Shown: positions 12,584-63,377 of the stretch, one piece after another
Numbering within the stretch: the first letter of the stretch is position 1
Layout: each line of letters opens with the position of its first letter
IMG/VR virus record: IMGVR_UViG_3300045988_057044
Span: 53,907 to 117,906 of that record
Length of the DNA stretch: 64,000 bases
DNA from: a virus
Strand: one strand, 5' to 3'
The notes under the pieces: model-generated
What the model saw: the letters and a program-made list of their open reading frames with translations, nothing else
Told to the model about the DNA's origin: nothing
Database searches by the model: none
Made by a program: the position numbers and the translations under genes

Positions 12584-13775
12584 AATCGCGAATACATTTT
12601 AGTACAGGTTGCAATGGAGTACCTTCATCAGATAGATAGAAGTACTTAACAGTAGCCATCTTTCCTATCAGCTCCTTAAGTCTTTCCCTATATTGCTGTT
12701 TAAGTTCTCTAGAACCCATTGGTTTAGCTTTAAATTCTATACCATCTTCTGTTATTAGCGTAAAACACATATCTTCTTCCCGAAGACCTTCTGATAAACC
12801 AGTAATTTCAAACTCTGCATCTTTGTAGAATTTAAATTTTAGCATATCATTAGTACGCTTGCCGAAGCCATACTCTTTATCTGGATTTCTACATACTACT
12901 CCTTCCCAACCTTCTGAAACATATTGGTTGTGCAGTTTCATAATATTCTCGTACCCAGAGACCTTTTCCTGCGGGACTATTTGCAATTGTAACTCACCCT
13001 CTTCCCAATCTTTATCTGGATTAAATCCAAGATTAAGTTCTTTCTGAAGCTGCTTAAGAATTTCAAGCCTATCAGAGAACTTCATACTAGGAATCATTAT
13101 ATCGTAAACATAATATTCAAGCCAGTCGCAGTCAACTGCGTTTTTCTCAAGACGAGCTGCTCCACTGATTTGTTGGAGACTTTTACCATGTCTATACAAC
13201 TCTCCATCAAGAATGTAAGTGGGATGATTCCTGAAGAACTCAAGCAATCTCTCATTGTTTCGGATATGGCTTGTTGAATAGTCATAATTTCCCCCACCTC
13301 TGGAAGCAGATAGAATCTCACCGTCCTTATAGTAGAAGGAACACCTAACTCCATCAATTTTTCTGCTAGCATACCAATACTTAACCTTATTGATTGAGGA
13401 TTCCTTAACTTTATCTGCAGATTTTGCAAGCATGTGCTTTGCAAATCCATTCTGGTCGGTTTTAATGTCTCCATAAAATTCTTCCAATTGAGTTTCGCTA
13501 TAAGTTTCGGGATCGTTCTCTAGCTCCTTGTAACCCTTATCTAAATATTTCTTAAGCTCAGACTTAAACTGCAACTCAAGTTGTTCTCTATGCGTTCTAC
13601 CAGCTTTTCCTTTAGTAATGACTATTTCTGGTTGCTCTGTCATCTTTCCATGTAGCTGTCCTGTAACTCTATTAATTACAAATCCAGCTTTTTCTTCATC
13701 CCACTGCTCTGTAGTAGATAAATATACAACTCTAAATTTGCCAGTTGAGGCTTTGCTTAACAAATATTTAATCAT
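12576..13775 (-). CDS. ATP-dependent DNA ligase
   Basis: Motif I YASRKIDGVRC (KxDGxR adenylation lysine), motif IV EGWEGVVCRNPD; size similar to T7-type ligases. Confidence 0.8.
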   Translation of the reverse strand: MIKYLLSKASTGKFRVVYLSTTEQWDEEKAGFVINRVTGQLHGKMTEQPEIVITKGKAGRTHREQLELQFKSELKKYLDKGYKELENDPETYSETQLEEFYGDIKTDQNGFAKHMLAKSADKVKESSINKVKYWYASRKIDGVRCSFYYKDGEILSASRGGGNYDYSTSHIRNNERLLEFFRNHPTYILDGELYRHGKSLQQISGAARLEKNAVDCDWLEYYVYDIMIPSMKFSDRLEILKQLQKELNLGFNPDKDWEEGELQLQIVPQEKVSGYENIMKLHNQYVSEGWEGVVCRNPDKEYGFGKRTNDMLKFKFYKDAEFEITGLSEGLREEDMCFTLITEDGIEFKAKPMGSRELKQQYRERLKELIGKMATVKYFYLSDEGTPLQPVLKCIRDYE

Positions 13776-17410: not shown

Positions 17411-18059
17411 TCTTTTTAGTTTCTGTATCTAATATAAAAGGTCTTCTTACATCTAAGCAAGCAAACTTGTCAGTAATAATGGGTTCTGATTCCAATTGAG
17501 TATGTCCAAATATTTGATAATATGTAGACTCTCTATCTCCTTCTCTGACATCGCTCCATACCATACCGCCTGTATTAGACCATCCTCCTCTCATACGAGA
17601 TACTTCCCATAGGAAGCCAACTAGAAAGTCCTCAGGCTTAGTAATTAGGTCAGTAATAGTAAAATCCATACTCTTTAACCAATCATTAGTAACTCCAGCA
17701 TGAGTATATAGAATACCTTCCGAGAAGTATTTGAGTTGGAATAGAGACTTGAAATTCTCAAACATTTCCTTAATTAGCTCTGCATTAGCGTAATCATACC
17801 TAGAAGCACTTCCGAAATCATAGCAATAAGCACAGTCGTGATTTCCAAGGAGTAGTATTACCTTATCGGGATTATCAACCTTGAATTGGATAATCTCTTT
17901 AAACTCCTCTATAGCATTCTCTCTAGTAATACCTTCATAACCATATGGGTCGAGGTAGTCCCCTAAAAAGACTACCTTATCCACACTATTAATCTTCTCT
18001 TTTGCTTTTCTCCAGAATGGTCTTCCGTGAACATCTGGAATAATTAAAATTTTACTCAT
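17394..18059 (-). CDS. Ser/Thr-phosphatase-like metallophosphoesterase
   Basis: Motifs IIPDVHGRP, GDYLDPYGY, GNHD. Confidence 0.7.
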   Translation of the reverse strand: MSKILIIPDVHGRPFWRKAKEKINSVDKVVFLGDYLDPYGYEGITRENAIEEFKEIIQFKVDNPDKVILLLGNHDCAYCYDFGSASRYDYANAELIKEMFENFKSLFQLKYFSEGILYTHAGVTNDWLKSMDFTITDLITKPEDFLVGFLWEVSRMRGGWSNTGGMVWSDVREGDRESTYYQIFGHTQLESEPIITDKFACLDVRRPFILDTETKKIEEYA

Positions 18060-18061
18060 TT

Positions 18062-20233
18062 TTAATTTACTTCTTTAGAATATGTTCTTTTCTCGGCTTC
18101 TATTCTTCTATCCTTACCAAAAGCAGTGATAGGTCTTAGATAGCCAATAATTCTGGTATATTGAGTAATATGTTCACTTCCACATTTAGGACATACCTTA
18201 ATGGGGGCTTTCACAATATGTTTGCAATCCTCGCACTTACTATTAGGAATATTGAACGTGAAGTAATTAGTTCCTTGCTGAATAGCAAAGTCTATAAGCT
18301 TCAAGTATTGCTCCTTAGATAGATGTTCCTCCAAGTTAATGTGGGCTGCACTACCTCCATCTGTATACTGATAAGTCTGCCTTCCATGAAGTATAAACTT
18401 ATCTAATACTGATGTATCATCATGGGCATTATAGAAGTAACTATTGTATAGATTCCTATCTTCAGGAACCCAATAGCCATCTGCTTTATCCCATTTATAA
18501 TTCTTACCTCCTAGACCTTCTGCAGGTACTACCTCAGAATTAAATAAGAAGGGACGCTTTTTATCATGGATAGAATGAATCTTGTTCTGCTCCTTAATAG
18601 TTCCGAGAATTAGTTGTAAGAACTTGAAATACTCTGGATTGTTAGATACCTTCATTCCTAAGAACTCAGCAGCTTCATTCAGACCATTTAGCCCAATAGT
18701 ACTATATAGGTCTTTGATGTTTATGTAACCTCCATTTGAAGAAGCAAACATCTTCTTATCCTCCCACTCATAGAGCATGGTCTTATAGGTAATGTGATAC
18801 TTGTATACTCTCTCTAGAATATCTATTAGATATTTTTTGAGTAGGGCAACATTATCTTTACAATGCAAGAGATTTTTGTCTCCATCTTCACTCCACCAAG
18901 TAGTTTCTTGTCTAGCCCAATCTTGGACAATTCTGTTAATATTCAGAGTAATAACATTACAAGAACCTGTCTTTACACCAGTCATACCAGAGGTAGGACT
19001 AAATGTATTTTCAGCTAATTCATTACGAAGACGACAACAAGATGCAAGACTATCTGCACTGTCTGAGATATAGGTAAAGAAACTATGACCTTGAGAATAC
19101 ATTTCTGCACATAAGTCTTTATAGTTCTTATCTATAATGTCTTTACCGTCATGCACCATAGCAAAGGTTTCTACTGGAAATGTTAGAACTTGTTTCAAGC
19201 GAAGTTTATTAAACCAAGACATGAACAATCTCTGTAAAGTATCAATTGCTACCCATTCCGGCTTAGTTCCGTCTGGATAGTAAAATTCTCCAAATAGAGA
19301 TTCAAAATAGGTCTTATCATAGTACGAAACATTAGTAAAGGGAGATTGATAACTTCTGTTTCCAGCAGGTTGATTAATTCCCCAAACAAACTGTTTAAAA
19401 GCTTTAAGGATGGAATCTTCGATAGTTCTCTTAATAAGAGAATGTTCCGAAGTACATATACAGTCGAGCTTCTCGTACCACTTTTCTCCGTATTCAGCAA
19501 TAATATAATAGTTAAGTGCAATAAAATAGCTACCTACAGCAACTGCTCCTTTACATTGAGAAGACAATAGAAATACTAAGTTAGTAACCTGTCCACTAAA
19601 TGACTGCAAATCGTTAGGAGGGCCAGGAGTAACTCCATCAATATTACCTACTCCCTCTAACATTAGAGGATATAGCGAGACTGCCATACAATACTGTTTA
19701 AGTACTGACGTAGAAGCCTCATCGTGAGTATAAATAATATGACTGTCTAGGTCTCTAGAATATTGAGAAGAGAGTTCGGGATAAAGAAGTTTTAATTTCT
19801 TCTTCATACGATAGCGCTGAATTTCTCTGTTCTCGCGCTTTCTATCCTCACTCTCTAATGTAGCAACGTTCTTAGATACAACATTAGCATTTCCATCTGT
19901 TTCAGATGAAGTAGCTGCATTTTCGGAACTATTAATATAGTTATCTTGATAACTAATCTTAGCTATGATTTCTCTAAGTCTAGATTGTTCGCTTCTATAC
20001 TGAGAATATGCTGAGGCTACATCATCGTAACCATAGTCCCTCAAGGTTTCTATTACTACGTCCTGAATCTCTTCTATAGTAATGCCGTCCCATAAATGCA
20101 TATCAGCCACCATAGCTGTAATGACTTCTTTATTTTCTTCAGGACAGCAAGCATTAAATGCTTTAGATATTGCTTCTACTATCTTATTACCGTCAAATTC
20201 CTGTAAACTTCCGTCTCTCTTTACTACTTGCAT
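18062..20233 (-). CDS. nrdD: anaerobic ribonucleoside-triphosphate reductase
   Basis: N-terminal ATP-cone (VVKRDGSLQEFDGNKIVEAISKAF), C-terminal Zn ribbon CEDCKH...CPKCG and glycyl-radical motif TRIIGYLRP. Confidence 0.9.
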   Translation of the reverse strand: MQVVKRDGSLQEFDGNKIVEAISKAFNACCPEENKEVITAMVADMHLWDGITIEEIQDVVIETLRDYGYDDVASAYSQYRSEQSRLREIIAKISYQDNYINSSENAATSSETDGNANVVSKNVATLESEDRKRENREIQRYRMKKKLKLLYPELSSQYSRDLDSHIIYTHDEASTSVLKQYCMAVSLYPLMLEGVGNIDGVTPGPPNDLQSFSGQVTNLVFLLSSQCKGAVAVGSYFIALNYYIIAEYGEKWYEKLDCICTSEHSLIKRTIEDSILKAFKQFVWGINQPAGNRSYQSPFTNVSYYDKTYFESLFGEFYYPDGTKPEWVAIDTLQRLFMSWFNKLRLKQVLTFPVETFAMVHDGKDIIDKNYKDLCAEMYSQGHSFFTYISDSADSLASCCRLRNELAENTFSPTSGMTGVKTGSCNVITLNINRIVQDWARQETTWWSEDGDKNLLHCKDNVALLKKYLIDILERVYKYHITYKTMLYEWEDKKMFASSNGGYINIKDLYSTIGLNGLNEAAEFLGMKVSNNPEYFKFLQLILGTIKEQNKIHSIHDKKRPFLFNSEVVPAEGLGGKNYKWDKADGYWVPEDRNLYNSYFYNAHDDTSVLDKFILHGRQTYQYTDGGSAAHINLEEHLSKEQYLKLIDFAIQQGTNYFTFNIPNSKCEDCKHIVKAPIKVCPKCGSEHITQYTRIIGYLRPITAFGKDRRIEAEKRTYSKEVN

Positions 20234-24846: not shown

Positions 24847-25185
24847 TTAATTTTCAGAATATTTAATGTAACCACCAATTTTCTTATTAACCACTACAGC
24901 TGCGCACATCTTGTCGTCTGGAATATTATAATATTCAGCGGCTTCTGATATAGAGTCAAAAGACATTACGACGTTTCCAAGGTTATCACAAACACTTACC
25001 CTGGAATTAGATACTTTATTCCTGTTGTTTCCAATAGAATCAGTCCATCTAATATTAGACACACAATTGTTCTTTCTATCTTTATCAATATGATCCGCTA
25101 TTTCCAGATTATCAGGATTTGGAATAAATGTAATCGCAACGAGTCTGTTTATTCTTCTATAGTATTTCTTACCGTTATAGCACAA
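24847..25185 (-). CDS. HNH homing endonuclease (HNH_3-like)
   Basis: ADHIDKDRKNNCVSNIRWTD resembles the HNH_3 DHIDxxxxNNxxxNLR motif. Confidence 0.6.
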   Translation of the reverse strand: MCYNGKKYYRRINRLVAITFIPNPDNLEIADHIDKDRKNNCVSNIRWTDSIGNNRNKVSNSRVSVCDNLGNVVMSFDSISEAAEYYNIPDDKMCAAVVVNKKIGGYIKYSEN

Positions 25186-25267
25186 ACCGACTCCTAAGTA
25201 TCCATCCTCACGAGGTTTTAATATGTTTCCTCTTCTTCTATTTCGTACCTAGCCATTGCTAGACACT

Positions 25268-25762
25268 TCATACGTTGGAAACTCTGGATATATTCTCCAT
25301 TCCTCCATTTTTGCACATTTCTAATAGTTCGTAAAAGAAGCTGATTGGGATTACAGCAACTTGCCCTCTAGCTGACTCTCCATTCTTTCCTGCCTTTTTC
25401 CAGCATATACAGAACGGCTTTGACTTATCACTGCAAGCATCTCTAATATCAAAATAGTTAGGCATATTCTGAGTAAATTTAGCTTGGATATTAACCGGAA
25501 GTTCATTGTTCATGTCAACAATATCTATTTTGTCAGCATCAGCCAATTTGTTTTGACTTCTGCTAGACACACATCCTTCGTATCCTATATCTCTAAGTTT
25601 GTGAATTATTTCTAATTCATACTGAGAGCCTTTTTGTTTACTCTTCTTTGCCTGCTTACTTCTTCTAACTGCGGGGTCTGCCCATTCAAAGGTAATTCCG
25701 TCTTTTGATTTTGCTCCAGAGCCAGGCTTATTAGCTCTAGCTTTGATTGAGTTTATCTCCAA
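25268..25762 (-). CDS. hypothetical protein (164 aa)
   Basis: ORF track. Confidence 0.4.
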   Translation of the reverse strand: MEINSIKARANKPGSGAKSKDGITFEWADPAVRRSKQAKKSKQKGSQYELEIIHKLRDIGYEGCVSSRSQNKLADADKIDIVDMNNELPVNIQAKFTQNMPNYFDIRDACSDKSKPFCICWKKAGKNGESARGQVAVIPISFFYELLEMCKNGGMENISRVSNV

Positions 25763-25841
25763 ACCAGTTCCTTCGGAGGCTAATTCAACAGATTCAAAAG
25801 TTTTCCTACTACCGTCCTTAAAGATGGCTGTAACACTTGTA

Positions 25842-26855
25842 TTAGTCTACTTTTTCATTCTTCTTAAGTTTCTTTATGTAATTAGTAATAAATTCTTGTG
25901 TACCTTTTCTTCCATACATATGGTAATAATCACTTATATCCTTAGCTCCTGTGCTTCTGGGAATCATTGATACAATTAGTTCTGGATGCTCTTTCCTAAT
26001 CTTATTAGTAAAACGTACTCCAGTCAAATCATTATCATATAGCAACACAACGTATTTGAATCTCTGCTTTAATTCTTCTAAAATCTTATCAGAAACAAAC
26101 TGAGTTTCAGAGTTGGGAGCTATAGCTGGTATTCCTAAAGAATATAAACACATTACATCTTTCATAGATTTAGTTATAACAACTAGTTTTCCACTCTTAG
26201 CTAATTGCTTATAGCCTTGAATAGTCTTGGTTGAAACATTTCCTATGAATCTAAACTCCTTTCGTTTTGGCATATAAATTCGCCATTGCTCGATGTTCTC
26301 TTTCTTTCCAAAATAATAGCCATATATAGGACTATGCTGGGCAGATTGTGCGTATATGTTCCCATTCAAAAATACAGTACTACAACTGTATACTTTGAAC
26401 TTATATAGGATGTCTTTAGTTATACCAAAGCTTCCCCACCACTTCAACTCAGGTTCTGAAAAATCCTTAGCCTCTATCTGAATAAAAGTTTGTTTCTCTT
26501 CTTCAAACTTAGGCTGGATTTTCACTGCAACTTTCTTTACGGAAGAATCTTTCGTATATCCAAAGTCTTTAGCTATAATCCTTAAAGCAGTGTGGTAGTT
26601 ACAATTATACTTTTCCATAACTACTCCTTCGAATGTGAGACATTTTCCAGAAGCAAAGTCTTTAAAATACAAGTTTCCAGATTTTCCTCTAAAGAAACTG
26701 CAAGTGACATGACTGTCACTACGCAAAGGAGACTTGAACAATCCTTTCTTAACTGGGATGCCCAGATAATAAGTCATGTAAGTCTCCTCATTGTTTTTAG
26801 ATAGAAGAAATTCCTTAGTAATTTTTGGTTCAAAAGTATAATCAAACATGGTCAC
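25842..26855 (-). CDS. DNA primase (Toprim domain)
   Basis: Toprim signature VVITKSMKDVMCLYSLGIPAIAPNSE...VVLLYDNDLTG (conserved E and DxD). Confidence 0.6.
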   Translation of the reverse strand: MTMFDYTFEPKITKEFLLSKNNEETYMTYYLGIPVKKGLFKSPLRSDSHVTCSFFRGKSGNLYFKDFASGKCLTFEGVVMEKYNCNYHTALRIIAKDFGYTKDSSVKKVAVKIQPKFEEEKQTFIQIEAKDFSEPELKWWGSFGITKDILYKFKVYSCSTVFLNGNIYAQSAQHSPIYGYYFGKKENIEQWRIYMPKRKEFRFIGNVSTKTIQGYKQLAKSGKLVVITKSMKDVMCLYSLGIPAIAPNSETQFVSDKILEELKQRFKYVVLLYDNDLTGVRFTNKIRKEHPELIVSMIPRSTGAKDISDYYHMYGRKGTQEFITNYIKKLKKNEKVD

Positions 26856-46363: not shown

Positions 46364-46630
46364 CTAGTTACTAATAGTATTGTTCCCATCAGAACTATTA
46401 CTAGTAATCTTACTAATTCCTTTTTCCACCATTTCATGCTCTAGCTTCTTCAAAGTTTCTACACTCTCCTCATTGAACTTATCCACTCCCAGTTCACTAA
46501 CCTTATATATCATAAGAATTTGGTGAAATCTTAGATAAGGATATTGGTCAATGATTTGACTCAATCTAGTTAATATCTTGAAATTAGCTTTCTTTCTAAA
46601 TCTGATAGCTTCTTCAATTTGAGCTTCCAT
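46364..46630 (-). CDS. hypothetical protein (88 aa)
   Basis: ORF track. Confidence 0.35.
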   Translation of the reverse strand: MEAQIEEAIRFRKKANFKILTRLSQIIDQYPYLRFHQILMIYKVSELGVDKFNEESVETLKKLEHEMVEKGISKITSNSSDGNNTISN

Positions 46631-47721: not shown

Positions 47722-47938
47722 CTTTAATTCCTAGATAATCCTTTAATAATTGAATGTTTCCTTCTCTCAAATGCCGAATAAAAGCCTCCCTTTCTCTCTC
47801 AAATAGCAGAATTTTACTCTCTAACAGGTCTATTCGTCTTTGTTGATTTTCCTCGTATTCTTCAATAGCGTCAGAAATTGCTTTAAGTATAGAAGATTCC
47901 TTCATAGCGCTACTCATTGTAGAACTCTTCGTCCCCAT
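47714..47938 (-). CDS. hypothetical protein (74 aa)
   Basis: ORF track. Confidence 0.35.
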   Translation of the reverse strand: MGTKSSTMSSAMKESSILKAISDAIEEYEENQQRRIDLLESKILLFEREREAFIRHLREGNIQLLKDYLGIKDE

Positions 47939-48335
47939 TATCGTCGCCTATAGGATTCTCCCATCCGTACTTTACAGCAGTAGCCTTAAACAAAGGCAAC
48001 CCATACATAGCATAATTCTCTTCAGGATAATTCTCTAAGCCCTCTTCTAGAACTTGATTCCATCTTAGTACCACGTAGAACATTAGGCTAGCTGAAATGC
48101 CTCTCTGGTCTAAAGCCTTCTCAAAACCAAACTCTACATCAGACTTAAGTTGCTCTAGGATATTCTCTCTAGTCCATTCCTTAGGCTCTGGATAAGGCTC
48201 ATCACCATCGTACTTGAAGCCTATTTTTCTAACTGCTCTTCTGTTAAAAACTTTGCTAATCTAGAACCGAAACGGTCATCGAGAACTACGGGCATAGTCT
48301 TTGTAATTGTCTAGAATCTCATTTAACGTTTTCAT
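47910..48335 (-). pseudogene. interrupted ORF: ATG(48333-48335) + 19 codons, in-frame TGA (48276-48278), 4 codons, in-frame TAG (48261-48263), then 112 protein-like codons without any canonical start (…KIGFKYDGDEPYPEPKEWTRENILEQLKSDVEFGFEKALDQRG…DDNGDEEFYNE)
   Basis: Manual rc translation; frame is shared with upstream ORF 48339..48659. Confidence 0.3.
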
Positions 48336-48791: not shown

Positions 48792-49466
48792 CTACTGCAC
48801 AATCAAGCTATAAGCTTCTTGCAACAGTTTAATAGTTGGAACCATATGGTTATCAACAACTATTATTTTATAAATGTTCAGAATTTCTTTGTAGGTTAAA
48901 GATGTACAAGTTAGAAATATCTGCGCATCTTCGTTTACAGAACCATTTGACAATCCCAAATCTACTTTAATCATACTGGGTAATGTTCCAATCTGAGAAA
49001 TGTCCCAAGTAGATTTAGTTCTCCTGAAAACTTCCCGCTGTTTGGAAGTAAGTTGCTTTTCTTTCAATCTAGACTCAATAATAGTACCATCAAACGTTAA
49101 CGAACCTCCATCGGTATTACTATTATTTAATGCTAGCTGAATCTTCTGAACTACAGAGTCTTTAGATTTTGGCTTAAGTTGCACTCCTTCCTTCAAGCCC
49201 TTAATAATCTGCAATGAAGGAATAAAGTCTTTTATTTGAGTTGCATTCCACACAAGAAATTTTCCAGGACTATCTTTAACAGTAACTATATACTTAGTCC
49301 CTCCGTTCAATGGAATAATCACTTGTAAGTCTGCATCACTCATTTTACTTAAATGGTCTGATACTCTAACTTTGACGTTTCCAATGACAAAGTAGCGAGA
49401 AACAGTTGTTTCTGCTTCGATAATCTCAGTAGCAGTTGCTACTAAATACTTTTCTAATCTAGTCAT
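48792..49466 (-). CDS. hypothetical protein (224 aa)
   Basis: ORF track. Confidence 0.45.
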   Translation of the reverse strand: MTRLEKYLVATATEIIEAETTVSRYFVIGNVKVRVSDHLSKMSDADLQVIIPLNGGTKYIVTVKDSPGKFLVWNATQIKDFIPSLQIIKGLKEGVQLKPKSKDSVVQKIQLALNNSNTDGGSLTFDGTIIESRLKEKQLTSKQREVFRRTKSTWDISQIGTLPSMIKVDLGLSNGSVNEDAQIFLTCTSLTYKEILNIYKIIVVDNHMVPTIKLLQEAYSLIVQ

Positions 49467-49823: not shown

Positions 49824-50279
49824 TTACTCCAGACTAATTAAACCCTTCTCTAACATAATATGGTGATTCGGACATAACCATACTAAATTATTCTCATTGT
49901 TAATCTCTTTAATAAGAGTGTCTTCGTCAAATTCTAATATTCCTTTAAGATGATGTACTTCAAGTATTGCATCAAATTCATGATTATGACAATATTGGCA
50001 TACTTTCTCACGTTCGGAACTTTCTAATACTCTACGAGCATTAGTCCTTATTTCTTGACATTTAGATGATAAGTACTTCTGCCCAGATGTATAATAACCT
50101 AATGTTTTGTTACCAATTCCATTAAGTTCTTCCCAGCAACTACGACACATTTCTGAATCTTTATGCTTAGGTTTACCACATCTAGGACATATCTTGTTTT
50201 CATCGTGCTTTATCCTACCTCTATTATTGTAAGAAGCTAATAATGAACTCCATAGGGATATGATAACTATCTGTAACAA
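49824..50279 (-). CDS. HNH endonuclease
   Basis: CPRCGK...CRSCW...CQYCHNHEFDAILEVHHL...NLVWLCPNHH (Zn-finger + HNH His-Me motif). Confidence 0.65.
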   Translation of the reverse strand: MLQIVIISLWSSLLASYNNRGRIKHDENKICPRCGKPKHKDSEMCRSCWEELNGIGNKTLGYYTSGQKYLSSKCQEIRTNARRVLESSEREKVCQYCHNHEFDAILEVHHLKGILEFDEDTLIKEINNENNLVWLCPNHHIMLEKGLISLE

Positions 50280-51415: not shown

Positions 51416-51778
51416 CTACGCAGGGACTGGCTTCGACTTATTAGCATAAATGCTAACAAAATGTCCACCACCTTGTTGAGGCGGAAGTATCAAATTTGGA
51501 AAGCGACTACTCCATAGTGCTAATCCAAGAGGAGACGTGCTTGTAAAAAACTCTCCAAGTTCCGATATAGGTTTTTTCAGTTCTCTAAGTTTTTCCGAAA
51601 TTTCCTTATACCTTTTACTCTTTTTATTAATCCCACTTCGCTGTGCCTCTAACTCAGCTATATTATCTAATATAGGTTTGACAATAGACTTGTAGTCTTC
51701 CTGAGTTATTAACAGCTTAACTTGACTTATACCATTTGCATAAGTAAGTTTAAACTTTCCAATAGGTTGTACTATCAT
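51416..51778 (-). CDS. hypothetical protein (120 aa)
   Basis: ORF track. Confidence 0.4.
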   Translation of the reverse strand: MIVQPIGKFKLTYANGISQVKLLITQEDYKSIVKPILDNIAELEAQRSGINKKSKRYKEISEKLRELKKPISELGEFFTSTSPLGLALWSSRFPNLILPPQQGGGHFVSIYANKSKPVPA

Positions 51779-52620: not shown

Positions 52621-52633
52621 CCTTGTTTCGTCG

Positions 52634-52708
52634 TTCCGATTAAAGGATTTGAACCTCCCACTAATGCTTTATTGGTATGGGCGCTCTACCATACTGAGCT
52701 AAATCGGA
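52634..52708 (-). tRNA. tRNA, anticodon undetermined (canonical acceptor, D and T arms; aberrant 23-nt anticodon region)
   Basis: minus sense TCCGATT-TA-GCTC-AGTATGGTA-GAGC-G-[CCCATACCAATAAAGCATTAGTG]-GGAGG-TTCAAAT-CCTTT-AATCGGA-A; no 5-7-5 anticodon arm can be drawn. Confidence 0.45.
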
Positions 52709-53675: not shown

Positions 53676-53978
53676 CTAAACTTCCATTAATATACTTGTC
53701 CATACTTTAATCCCAATATTCTGGGCAGTCATTAATAATCCCTTTTCGCAAAAGCCTTTATCATAGAAAATGCAGGATGAACACGAAAGATTGTCCCTAG
53801 ATTCATATTCTTGAATACCTTCTTGAATATCTCTTTTTGCTTTATATCTATCCTTTCTATTCTCTTTCTTGTATTCATATTGCATCATTCTGCTTCTATA
53901 AGGAGAAGTGCAATTCTTAAGCATCTTTGCGTATTTAGAACTATCAAGGAAGTCCGTAATTGACTCACAGACCTTCAA
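53676..53978 (-). CDS. hypothetical protein (100 aa)
   Basis: ORF track. Confidence 0.35.
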   Translation of the reverse strand: MKVCESITDFLDSSKYAKMLKNCTSPYRSRMMQYEYKKENRKDRYKAKRDIQEGIQEYESRDNLSCSSCIFYDKGFCEKGLLMTAQNIGIKVWTSILMEV

Positions 53979-55916: not shown

Positions 55917-56348
55917 TTAATTGTTATTATAATTGTGAAGTTGCATATGACAGTTAGAGCAAACTATCATTAGATTATCCAACTTATTATTATAATGGTT
56001 ATTATCCTTGTGATGTAATTCTAAAGGAATTTTCATTCCCTCTGATAATCCACAACGCTCACACTTATCTTCTTTATATCCATCCTCTATTAATCTTATC
56101 CTCTTTCTAGAATTAGAAACATTAGGATTTTCTATCAGGTCTAAAGCATCTTTCCTCTTTGGGTCTAGTCTTTTTCCCTTAGAACCTTGATTCCCCTTAT
56201 ACTCTATTCCCATCTTAATATAATAGGATTTTAAAGTATCAACCTTGCAATTTAGTCTTCTAGCTATTTCAGCATTAGACTCATTTTCTGAAATCCATTG
56301 TCGGATTTCCTATTCTCTTTCTAAAATGTCGATTCTTGCCTTTGCCAT
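55917..56348 (-). CDS. HNH endonuclease with N-terminal HTH domain, interrupted by an in-frame TAG (56310-56312) 12 codons after the ATG
   Basis: ORF-track ORF 55917..56213 (CERCG...HHKDNNHYNNKLDNLMIVCSNCH = HNH). Its frame continues upstream through EIRQWISENESNAEIARRLNCKVDTLKSYYIK (sigma-region-4/LuxR-type HTH) with no start codon until MAKARIDILERE-TAG. Confidence 0.5.
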
Positions 56349-56383
56349 ATTAAATACTATAAATTCCGCCACTACCCCAACTG

Positions 56384-56846: not shown

Positions 56847-57257
56847 TTATACTACTTTAAGATGGCAATAAATACTAAATTCTGGAATTGGAATCCAAGT
56901 TGCAATACCATTGCTATCTACTGGTTTACCCTTGTTGATTGTACAAATAGTGATATGAGGTTTAGCATTTGCACAAGGCAGATATTGGTCTCCCAATTCT
57001 ACTCCAAAAGCTATTGCTTTCTCAGAAATCCCTATTTTGTTTACAATTAATCGAAAATTACCATCTATACGATATTGTAGGTCATTAGCCATCTTTTCTT
57101 CATGTTGATTTTTATGGAGAAGAGTGCAATGATCTAAATAAATAGTACTTCCTCTTTGGAACACCAGATTGCAAATAATGGGATTTCCAATGATAACTTG
57201 CATAAGTTTGTTTCTAGTTGGTTCATCTAAGAACAATCCAAAATACTGATAATTCAT
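56847..57257 (-). CDS. hypothetical protein (136 aa)
   Basis: ORF track. Confidence 0.4.
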   Translation of the reverse strand: MNYQYFGLFLDEPTRNKLMQVIIGNPIICNLVFQRGSTIYLDHCTLLHKNQHEEKMANDLQYRIDGNFRLIVNKIGISEKAIAFGVELGDQYLPCANAKPHITICTINKGKPVDSNGIATWIPIPEFSIYCHLKVV

Positions 57258-57904: not shown

Positions 57905-58329
57905 AATTTAGAACGTATATCGTTAATTAACGCTTGAATCATATGAGTTTGTTCTCTCCATTTGTAATGAAATTCAAGACTGTTAGACTCTTCTTCGGTT
58001 AATGGAATATGAAATAATATTTTATGGTATATATTCTTAAACCATTTCCTCTCAAGCTTCCTACTTTCCTTAGTTCCTACCTCATATCCTCTCTTAGATT
58101 TACGGTTCTTAGAACGACCACGTGCCCAACCAAATTGTTTGCCATCATTCACCCATTTCCAGTCGGCTCTGGCTTCTTTTTGCCTAAGCCTCTTGTTAAT
58201 GATATTAATCTTTTCTATCTCTTCCATATTTGTTAATTTTGTTGGGCTACTAGGACTCGAACCTAGACTGACAGAATCAAAATCTGTAGTGCTAACCATT
58301 ACACCCAATACTAACTTAACTATTCTCAC
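57901..58329 (-). CDS. hypothetical basic protein (142 aa)
   Basis: ORF track. Confidence 0.4.
   Translation of the reverse strand: MRIVKLVLGVMVSTTDFDSVSLGSSPSSPTKLTNMEEIEKINIINKRLRQKEARADWKWVNDGKQFGWARGRSKNRKSKRGYEVGTKESRKLERKWFKNIYHKILFHIPLTEEESNSLEFHYKWREQTHMIQALINDIRSKL
58242..58313 (-). tRNA. tRNA-Gln(TTG)-like; acceptor strands do not pair (possible chimera/pseudogene)
   Basis: minus sense TAGTATT-GG-GTGT-AATGGTTA-GCAC-T-ACAGA-TTTTGAT-TCTGT-CAGT-CTAGG-TTCGAGT-CCTAG-TAGCCCA-A. Confidence 0.45.
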
Positions 58330-63309: not shown

Positions 63310-63377
63310 GGTGTTATAGCGAACCGCTGACCTCTACAGCCACAATGTAGCGTTCTGCCAACTGAACTAATAACACC
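63310..63377 (-). tRNA. tRNA-His(GTG)-like with encoded G-1 and T arm reduced to a 4-bp/3-nt mini-hairpin
   Basis: minus sense G(-1)-GTGTTAT-TA-GTTC-AGTTGGCA-GAAC-G-CTACA-TTGTGGC-TGTAG-AGGTC-AGCG-GTT-CGCT-ATAACAC-C. Confidence 0.45.

Follow-up and report, generated by a model that had tools for sequence, protein, structure and literature searches.

An in-frame TAG probably read as glutamine in a putative free-standing HTH-HNH homing-endonuclease gene of a probable crAss-like gut phage

The HTH-HNH gene on the minus strand of the 64,000-nucleotide stretch of viral DNA analysed in this study (IMG/VR record IMGVR_UViG_3300045988_057044, positions 53,907 to 117,906; hereafter the window) is very probably an intact, free-standing homing-endonuclease gene of a crAss-like gut phage of about 183 kb that uses genetic code 15 (TAG read as glutamine) in part of its genome. 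The single in-frame TAG of this gene, at codon 13, is a conserved sense codon under purifying selection, and the gene is not broken by it. The TAG is very probably decoded, and we infer glutamine as the inserted residue. A sequence-only reading of the locus had put forward two explanations. Recoding of TAG to glutamine, as in crAss-like phages, was borne out by the conservation of the TAG, by the presence of CAG in its place in a near-identical relative and by a suppressor tRNA; a recent nonsense mutation in a decaying gene, considered there to be the simpler explanation, found no such support, since the TAG is conserved, the gene is under purifying selection and a suppressor exists.

The HTH-HNH frame (positions 55917-56348, minus strand) runs from an ATG at 56348-56346 to a TAA at 55919-55917 and comprises 143 sense codons, including the TAG at 56312-56310 (codon 13), which is its sole interruption. 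The read-through product has the form MAKARIDILERE[TAG]EIRQWISENESNAEIARRLNCKVDTLKSYY...HNH. None of the 32 codons between this TAG and the ATG at 56213-56211, where the ORF track begins, is ATG, GTG or TTG. The coordinates given in the sequence-only reading for the ATG, the TAG, the ORF-track start and the TAA were all exact, and its statement that no start codon follows the TAG before the ATG at 56213 was confirmed. Analysis of the product with Pfam revealed a GerE/LuxR-type helix-turn-helix (HTH) at residues 10-43 (56220-56321, minus strand), a segment that spans the TAG (PF00196; 1.6e-05, 24.9 bits against a gathering cut-off of 23.5). The HTH_38 profile also matches this segment (2.9e-05). 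The LuxR-like HTH that had been noticed upstream of the ORF-track start is thus supported by a Pfam match above the cut-off. Residues 96-139 (55932-56063, minus strand) match the HNH nuclease domain (PF01844; 21.8 bits against a cut-off of 21.4), with the pattern CxxC ... PLELHH ... N ... CSNCH, and residues 12-141 match the HNH endonuclease family PHROG 10822 (4e-16).

C96, C99, H112, H113 and N121 were found to be invariant columns in the homologue alignment (A1). Approximately 290 database homologues, roughly 145 amino acids each, span the entire read-through product, and therefore the HTH is normally fused to the HNH domain; the suspicion that this fusion might not be the norm was not upheld by the alignment. 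The public gene call for this gene on a scaffold that matches the window (L103, described below) is 143 amino acids long, that is, with the TAG read through.

Comparison of the gene with its relatives revealed a TAG at codon 13 in the window, in MT838061 (L001, Mexico), in ENA contigs L002 and L003, in IMG/VR sequences L004-L010 and in L103. A TAG at the equivalent site was also found in homologues with 87% (L112), 72% (L109) and 66% identity (L116, L117 and L119), all of them from other phage contigs, four of which span 166-183 kb. More than 15 independent assemblies, produced by various studies in different countries, share the codon-13 TAG, and because it recurs in independent data its interpretation as a sequencing or assembly artefact is refuted. 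It persists despite heavy synonymous divergence in six of the seven lineages examined, and CAG was found at codon 13 in the near-identical relative L104. Codon differences between the window and L112 amount to 57 synonymous and 17 non-synonymous; between the window and L010 they amount to 11 and 4, respectively. The 12 codons ahead of the TAG and the HTH after it are both conserved among the homologues.

Each homologue has between two and six in-frame stops, all of which are TAG and all of which fall at positions where glutamine is conserved. Among the homing-endonuclease genes examined, TAG accounts for 30 of 30 in-frame stops, with neither TAA nor TGA present. The CAA of the window in the motif CHMQLH, where glutamine is at least 90% conserved, is replaced by TAG in L112, L109, L117 and L119, and L116 has a TAG at the equivalent position (CHA#). 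The glutamine of NLQILC is a TAG in L109, and that of GNQ is a TAG in L083. Alignment of the HNH gene with its homologues, which the sequence-only reading had suggested as a check, thus showed a TAG that is kept down to 66% identity and that occupies glutamine positions.

The closest database proteins have glutamine at codon 13 (EREQEIRQW). The possibility that the Q of three of these proteins (P0001, P0002 and P0009) represents an ancestral CAG was considered and rejected, as the DNA has TAG and the proteins are code-15 translations. The DNA behind P0009, a 190,730-bp ENA contig, has TAG at codon 13, and its translation differs from the database protein; the ...NNNQ ending of P0001 and P0002 has its counterpart in the TAG-TAA of L010. 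Since the DNA has TAG where these proteins show glutamine, the public gene calls used TAG as a glutamine codon, which hints that code 15 gave the better score over whole contigs.

No suppressor tRNA(CTA) was found within the 64-kb window, either by ARAGORN in default, relaxed and intron modes or by Rfam, in agreement with the sequence-only reading, which had found none readable there; the relaxed and intron output of ARAGORN on the window was noise. Search of the matching scaffold did reveal a tRNA(CTA), so that the absence of any suppressor tRNA, which the same reading had linked to a pseudogene, is not the case. This scaffold, L103 (ENA ERZ28579017, CHAT13-1_SAMEA2146320_METAG-scaffold_20, 183,563 bp), matches the terminal 10.6 kb of the window with one mismatch and no gaps over 10,617 nt and reaches 9.8 kb past window coordinate 64000. 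The tRNA(CTA) lies at L103 2182-2254 on the opposite strand, about 7.6 kb past window coordinate 64000. It is also present in six relatives (L084, L085, L088, L089, L104 and L106), and in the D and T arms it agrees with the tRNA-Gln(TTG) of the phage itself. Because the phage has an amber-suppressor tRNA of its own, with which TAG is read as an amino acid, the codon-13 TAG would be an ordinary glutamine codon.

The genes around the tRNA(CTA) of L103 are ORFs with 1-4 in-frame TAGs each. In L089, a 786-aa ORF with 15 TAGs was identified by PHROGs as the terminase large subunit (phrog_6681, 1e-61), Pfam giving no match for it, and the ORFs beside it have 3-7 TAGs each. This terminase was read in contigs of close relatives (L089), whose HNH gene has 98% protein identity; L089 and L006 belong to the same UViG, of which the L006 part carries the HTH-HNH gene. 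TAG represents 0.32-0.48 (about 30-50%) of the glutamine codons in the late genes of close relatives. Other conserved genes therefore do need TAG read-through, namely the 15-TAG terminase and GIY-YIG, PD-(D/E)XK and other HNH genes, contrary to the possibility, raised before, that there were none.

Analysis of further tRNA genes gave the following observations. A second suppressor (SupA) was sought at L103 3700-5300 and was not found. A second tRNA of 71 nt, at one conserved position in close relatives and not found in L103, has the anticodon CTA in L089 (11544-11614) and L104 (3488-3559), CTG (Gln) in L084 (11539-11609) and TTA (ochre-type) in L106 (4284-4354); its anticodon therefore switches over short evolutionary distances. 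The tRNA-like gene at 52633-52708 (minus strand) of the window, called 'tRNA-Tyr(ATA)', is conserved (L002 13642-13724) and has a mismatched anticodon stem. It was rejected as a hidden suppressor since its anticodon loop does not contain CTA.

These results bear on the alternative that the gene is a fresh pseudogene, in which a recent change from CAG to TAG killed a decaying endonuclease and left at most a 98-aa HNH-only ORF starting from the ATG at 56213. A single C-to-T change is enough to make TAG from CAG, the codon present in L104; the window allele has lost two nearly invariant residues through a 6-nt deletion, small deletions in the region hit several tRNA genes and small ORFs, and one relative (L107) lacks everything 3' of the TAG. 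Against this stand the retention of the TAG to 66% identity with the remaining frame open, the excess of synonymous over non-synonymous codon differences (57 against 17), the conservation of the frame on either side of the TAG, with 12 codons ahead of it and the HTH behind it, the two to six stops of the homologues, and the tRNA(CTA) of the matching scaffold together with the 15 in-frame TAGs in the terminase of a relative. As the only stops are TAG, as they occur only at glutamine sites and as the substitutions are mainly synonymous, the gene is not a decaying pseudogene in our reading, and we regard a fresh pseudogene as highly improbable.

Coding sequence makes up 91% of the window when it is read with the standard code, and 113 ORFs lie on the minus strand. 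Only seven of the 113 end in TAG (53676-53978, 51416-51778, 48792-49466, 47910-48083, 46364-46630, 1712-2038 and 322-546), and in each of these a TAA or TGA follows after 0-8 codons (Mann-Whitney p = 0.0085). TAG is thus avoided as a terminator in the window, and late read-through of the seven ORFs would add few residues because of the TAA/TGA back-up. TAG makes up none of the glutamine codons in PolA, NrdD, the AAA ATPase and a 668-aa gene of the window; PolA and NrdD have 28 CAA/CAG glutamine codons each. Since the suppressor tRNA lies outside it, the window alone looks like standard-code DNA.

The best hits of PolA are crAss-like (IAS virus and PhiCrAssBcn, 45-52% identity). Among named or annotated phages the best hits of the terminase large subunit (TerL) are also crAss-like (26-29% identity), with two unannotated human-faecal phage contigs scoring higher (42-45%). 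The phage contigs of this lineage are 183-192 kb long and contain a large tRNA array. Zeta-group crAss-like phages are reported to have the largest genomes, many tRNAs and suppressors, and TAG or TGA reassignment (PMC7886860). The phage thus probably belongs to the Zeta group of crAss-like phages, which fits its size, tRNA array, suppressors and code switching.

The HTH-HNH gene is present in the window, L002-L010, L103 and L104 and absent in L106 and L108. The flanks of the latter two are 97-99% identical to the window, and in both an intact tRNA-Leu(TAG) starts directly after a 153-aa ORF. Alignment with these HNH-less genomes revealed a 17-nt copy of the tRNA-Leu 5' end (GGGGTAGTGGCGGAATT; 56362-56378, minus strand) upstream of the HTH-HNH gene, which marks the upstream edge of the insertion. 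The order in the window is the 17-nt tRNA copy, a 13-nt spacer, the HNH gene and, directly downstream of it, a complete tRNA-Leu(TAG) at 55907-55832 on the minus strand (ARAGORN, Rfam and alignments). The D and anticodon stems of this tRNA-Leu differ from the allele of the HNH-less genomes, and the window copy has a 7-nt deletion in the variable arm. This arrangement is characteristic of a free-standing homing endonuclease whose flanks have been co-converted, and it suggests that the HTH-HNH gene may be capable of homing.

A group I intron origin of the gene was rejected, as Rfam reported only tRNAs and no group I intron in the window and the downstream tRNA-Leu is complete without splicing. 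In L107 (approximately 17745-17900) only codons 1-13 of the HNH gene survive, the TAG included, and they are joined to a gene whose position in the window is about 2.4 kb further downstream; the deletion has taken out the remainder of the HNH gene together with tRNA-Leu and the AAA ATPase. Elsewhere in the lineage, the nrdD match in L151, L152, L155, L167, L180 and L181 (10001 to approximately 12900-13245) is about 0.75-1.1 kb longer than window 18062-20233, which suggests an intron or intein insertion in these relatives.

Analysis of the replication/tRNA module revealed convincing TAG sense codons only in homing-endonuclease genes, where TAG represents 0.25-1.0 of the glutamine codons, and Pfam domains span the TAGs in each recoded nuclease gene of the module. 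A code-15 ORF scan of the window identified a NUMOD4 homing-endonuclease-like gene at 24847-25308 (minus strand) with a TAG at codon 20 (25251-25249). Its product, MEEWRIYPEFPTYEVSSNG[TAG]VRN..., has a Pfam match (2.2e-07, 31.4 bits) at residues 2-34, across the TAG. In relatives, three TAGs were found in a PD-(D/E)XK gene and two each in a GIY-YIG gene and an HNH_3/treble-clef gene.

Other ORFs of this kind were also recorded. An ORF of 196 codons at 25268-25858 (minus strand) overlaps the NUMOD4 gene upstream, and its ATG start is reachable only if the TAG at codon 4 (25849-25847) is read through. It has no Pfam match, and the two ORFs (24847-25308 and 25268-25858) may form a split or two-part nuclease cassette. 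An HNH_2 and zinc ribbon gene in the tRNA array (49824-50279, minus strand) is free of in-frame TAGs, and its possible starts are TTG or GTG, with no ATG. Members of the HTH-HNH family were also found in a TGA-recoded phage (L021 10001-10420), with TGA at three conserved Trp/Met positions, and in another TAG-recoded phage of 196 kb (L083 10001-10420), with three TAGs; the family therefore passes between phages that differ in their codes and adopts the code of its resident phage. Code-15 ORF extensions at 56968, 53523, 46675, 38869, 32114, 12233 and 1391, and a 186-aa call in L002 with three TAGs, were judged to be 5' over-extensions and not recoding.

The window allele carries a 6-nt in-frame deletion (GTGGAT) in comparison with L001-L008, with its junction at 56037-56042 (minus strand). 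The deletion removes the Trp-Met of '...GLSEWMGMKIP...', just upstream of the HNH motif. The lost W and M are each at least 90% conserved in alignment A1, and an independent run (L115) shows this deletion too. The window allele may be catalytically weakened, and the loss of W-M may leave it non-functional whatever the decoding of the TAG. Its activity is uncertain because this loss is one of many local microdeletions. The description of the gene as a decaying endonuclease in the sequence-only reading thus fails as regards the TAG and holds as regards the W-M lost through the 6-nt deletion.

Across 46-64 kb, approximately 23 deletions, each 5-14 nt long, set the window apart from all relatives; they are located between short direct repeats (for example at 63321, 58305, 56040, 55860, 55759, 53987, 53729, 53617, 53580, 52657 and 50905). 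These microdeletions frameshift small ORFs in the region and damage tRNA-His (63310-63376), tRNA-Gln (58242-58307), the variable arm of tRNA-Leu and the tRNA-like gene at 52633-52708. The tRNA-like genes that had been found uninterpretable are, with this explanation, real tRNA genes with short deletions, such as tRNA-His and tRNA-Gln.

The deletions, peculiar to the window against all relatives, could be taken to mean that they and the TAG are errors of one assembly. Only about one such deletion was found in 22 kb of the replication region in comparison with ten relatives, two of the microdeletions recur in the unrelated run L115, and the TAG is the same in more than 15 independent assemblies. 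Because the microdeletions are region-specific and two of them recur in L115, a global assembly artefact was rejected as their cause, and we consider errors of one assembly to have next to no probability as an explanation of the TAG and the deletions together. The microdeletions might have arisen because selection on the tRNA array is relaxed, or because cuts by endonucleases were repaired in an error-prone way; that the burst represents scarring from cuts by these very nucleases is speculative.

Overall, our analysis suggests how a TAG at codon 13 might act during infection. In early infection, the release factor RF1 of the host, which is probably a Bacteroidota species, would end translation after 12 residues, and for this reason no nuclease would be made. 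As the suppressor tRNA accumulates, UAG would be read as glutamine and the full HTH-HNH protein would be produced. The HTH would then guide the nuclease to co-infecting relatives whose tRNA-Leu allele has no endonuclease gene, and repair of the break would copy the HTH-HNH gene into the gene-less allele (homing). The TAG would in this way constitute a late-phase translational lock on a selfish nuclease, kept by selection or by mere tolerance. Synthesis of the mobile HTH-HNH nuclease is probably limited to the late phase.

A stronger proposal is that the code-15 switch serves as a timer specifically for selfish nucleases, with selection keeping the amber lock. It draws on the confinement of TAG to at least four unrelated nuclease families, on its late-gene frequency in them and on the retention of the codon-13 TAG to 66% identity; we offer it tentatively and hold it to be rather unlikely. 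Such a lock is not obligatory, given the lack of TAG in the HNH_2 gene and the CAG that L104 has in place of the codon-13 TAG. The same two observations agree with an account in which TAG means glutamine without regulatory meaning, the endonuclease genes having drifted to late-gene usage or having come from recoded phages. That account, for which the odds are less than even though appreciable, also fits the TAG share of the endonuclease genes (0.25-1.0), which resembles that of late genes (0.32-0.48), and the L021 family member, which uses TGA at Trp positions, the code of its own phage. The persistence of the codon-13 TAG in six of seven lineages and the lack of TAG in neighbouring early genes (PolA and NrdD) speak against the account, although neither is statistically decisive.

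Code 15 (TAG to Gln) is well documented in crAss-like and other gut phages (Ivanova 2014; Yutin 2021, PMC7886860; Borges 2021/2022, bioRxiv 10.1101/2021.08.26.457843; PMC9523058), and metaproteomics has been carried out for other crAss-like phages (Peters 2022, PMC9523058). No description of this lineage with its HTH-HNH gene was found in the code-15 phage literature cited. Consistent with the known code-15 phages, TAG occurs here in late genes such as the terminase while replication genes keep the standard code, a tRNA(CTA) is phage-encoded, and few genes end in TAG, those that do having a TAA or TGA as back-up. A genome of about 183-192 kb and a large tRNA array are shared with Zeta-group crAss-like phages. 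There is no difference in kind from known code-15 phages, except that the suppressor here lies outside the window, and the HTH-HNH case adds one more instance to the code-15 recoding already known from crAss-like phages.

The case has consequences for annotation and detection. Read with the standard code, the HTH-HNH gene and several other nuclease genes of the lineage look truncated or broken; read with code 15, they are intact. As much as 64 kb of a recoded phage can pass as standard-code DNA, and here nothing but the mobile nuclease genes gives a clue to the recoding. Fragmentary contigs of recoded phages could therefore be flagged at little cost by in-frame TAGs in homing endonucleases.

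A recoded homing endonuclease, encoded in a group I intron of an early gene, has been described in the TGA-recoded Agate phages, and Borges et al. proposed that its stops delay synthesis of the nuclease to late infection (bioRxiv 10.1101/2021.08.26.457843). As in Agate, a selfish nuclease with recoded stops is found here amid early standard-code genes. Unlike in Agate, the recoded stop is TAG (Gln) instead of TGA (Trp), the gene is not intron-encoded but stands by itself next to a tRNA gene, and at least four families in the tRNA array are involved (HTH-HNH, HNH_3/NUMOD4, GIY-YIG and PD-(D/E)XK). This study thus adds a multi-family TAG example to the one case published so far in which a homing endonuclease of an early region is recoded, and it supports the idea that a code switch gates the timing of selfish nuclease synthesis.

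Phage tRNA clusters are known to hold free-standing homing endonucleases, such as SegB of T4 and the HNH nucleases of T5-like phages. The HTH-HNH gene resembles these in being a small nuclease gene between tRNA genes, in being present or absent among relatives and in adjoining a tRNA allele that differs with and without the nuclease gene. It differs from them in its combination of a GerE/LuxR-type HTH with an HNH domain and in its putative dependence on an amber suppressor for translation, its cleavage activity being likewise putative. With a classical amber mutant or pseudogene the gene shares a single in-frame TAG that is one transition away from CAG; in contrast to such a mutant, the TAG here is conserved, the gene is under purifying selection, a cognate suppressor is encoded and no other disabling stop is present.
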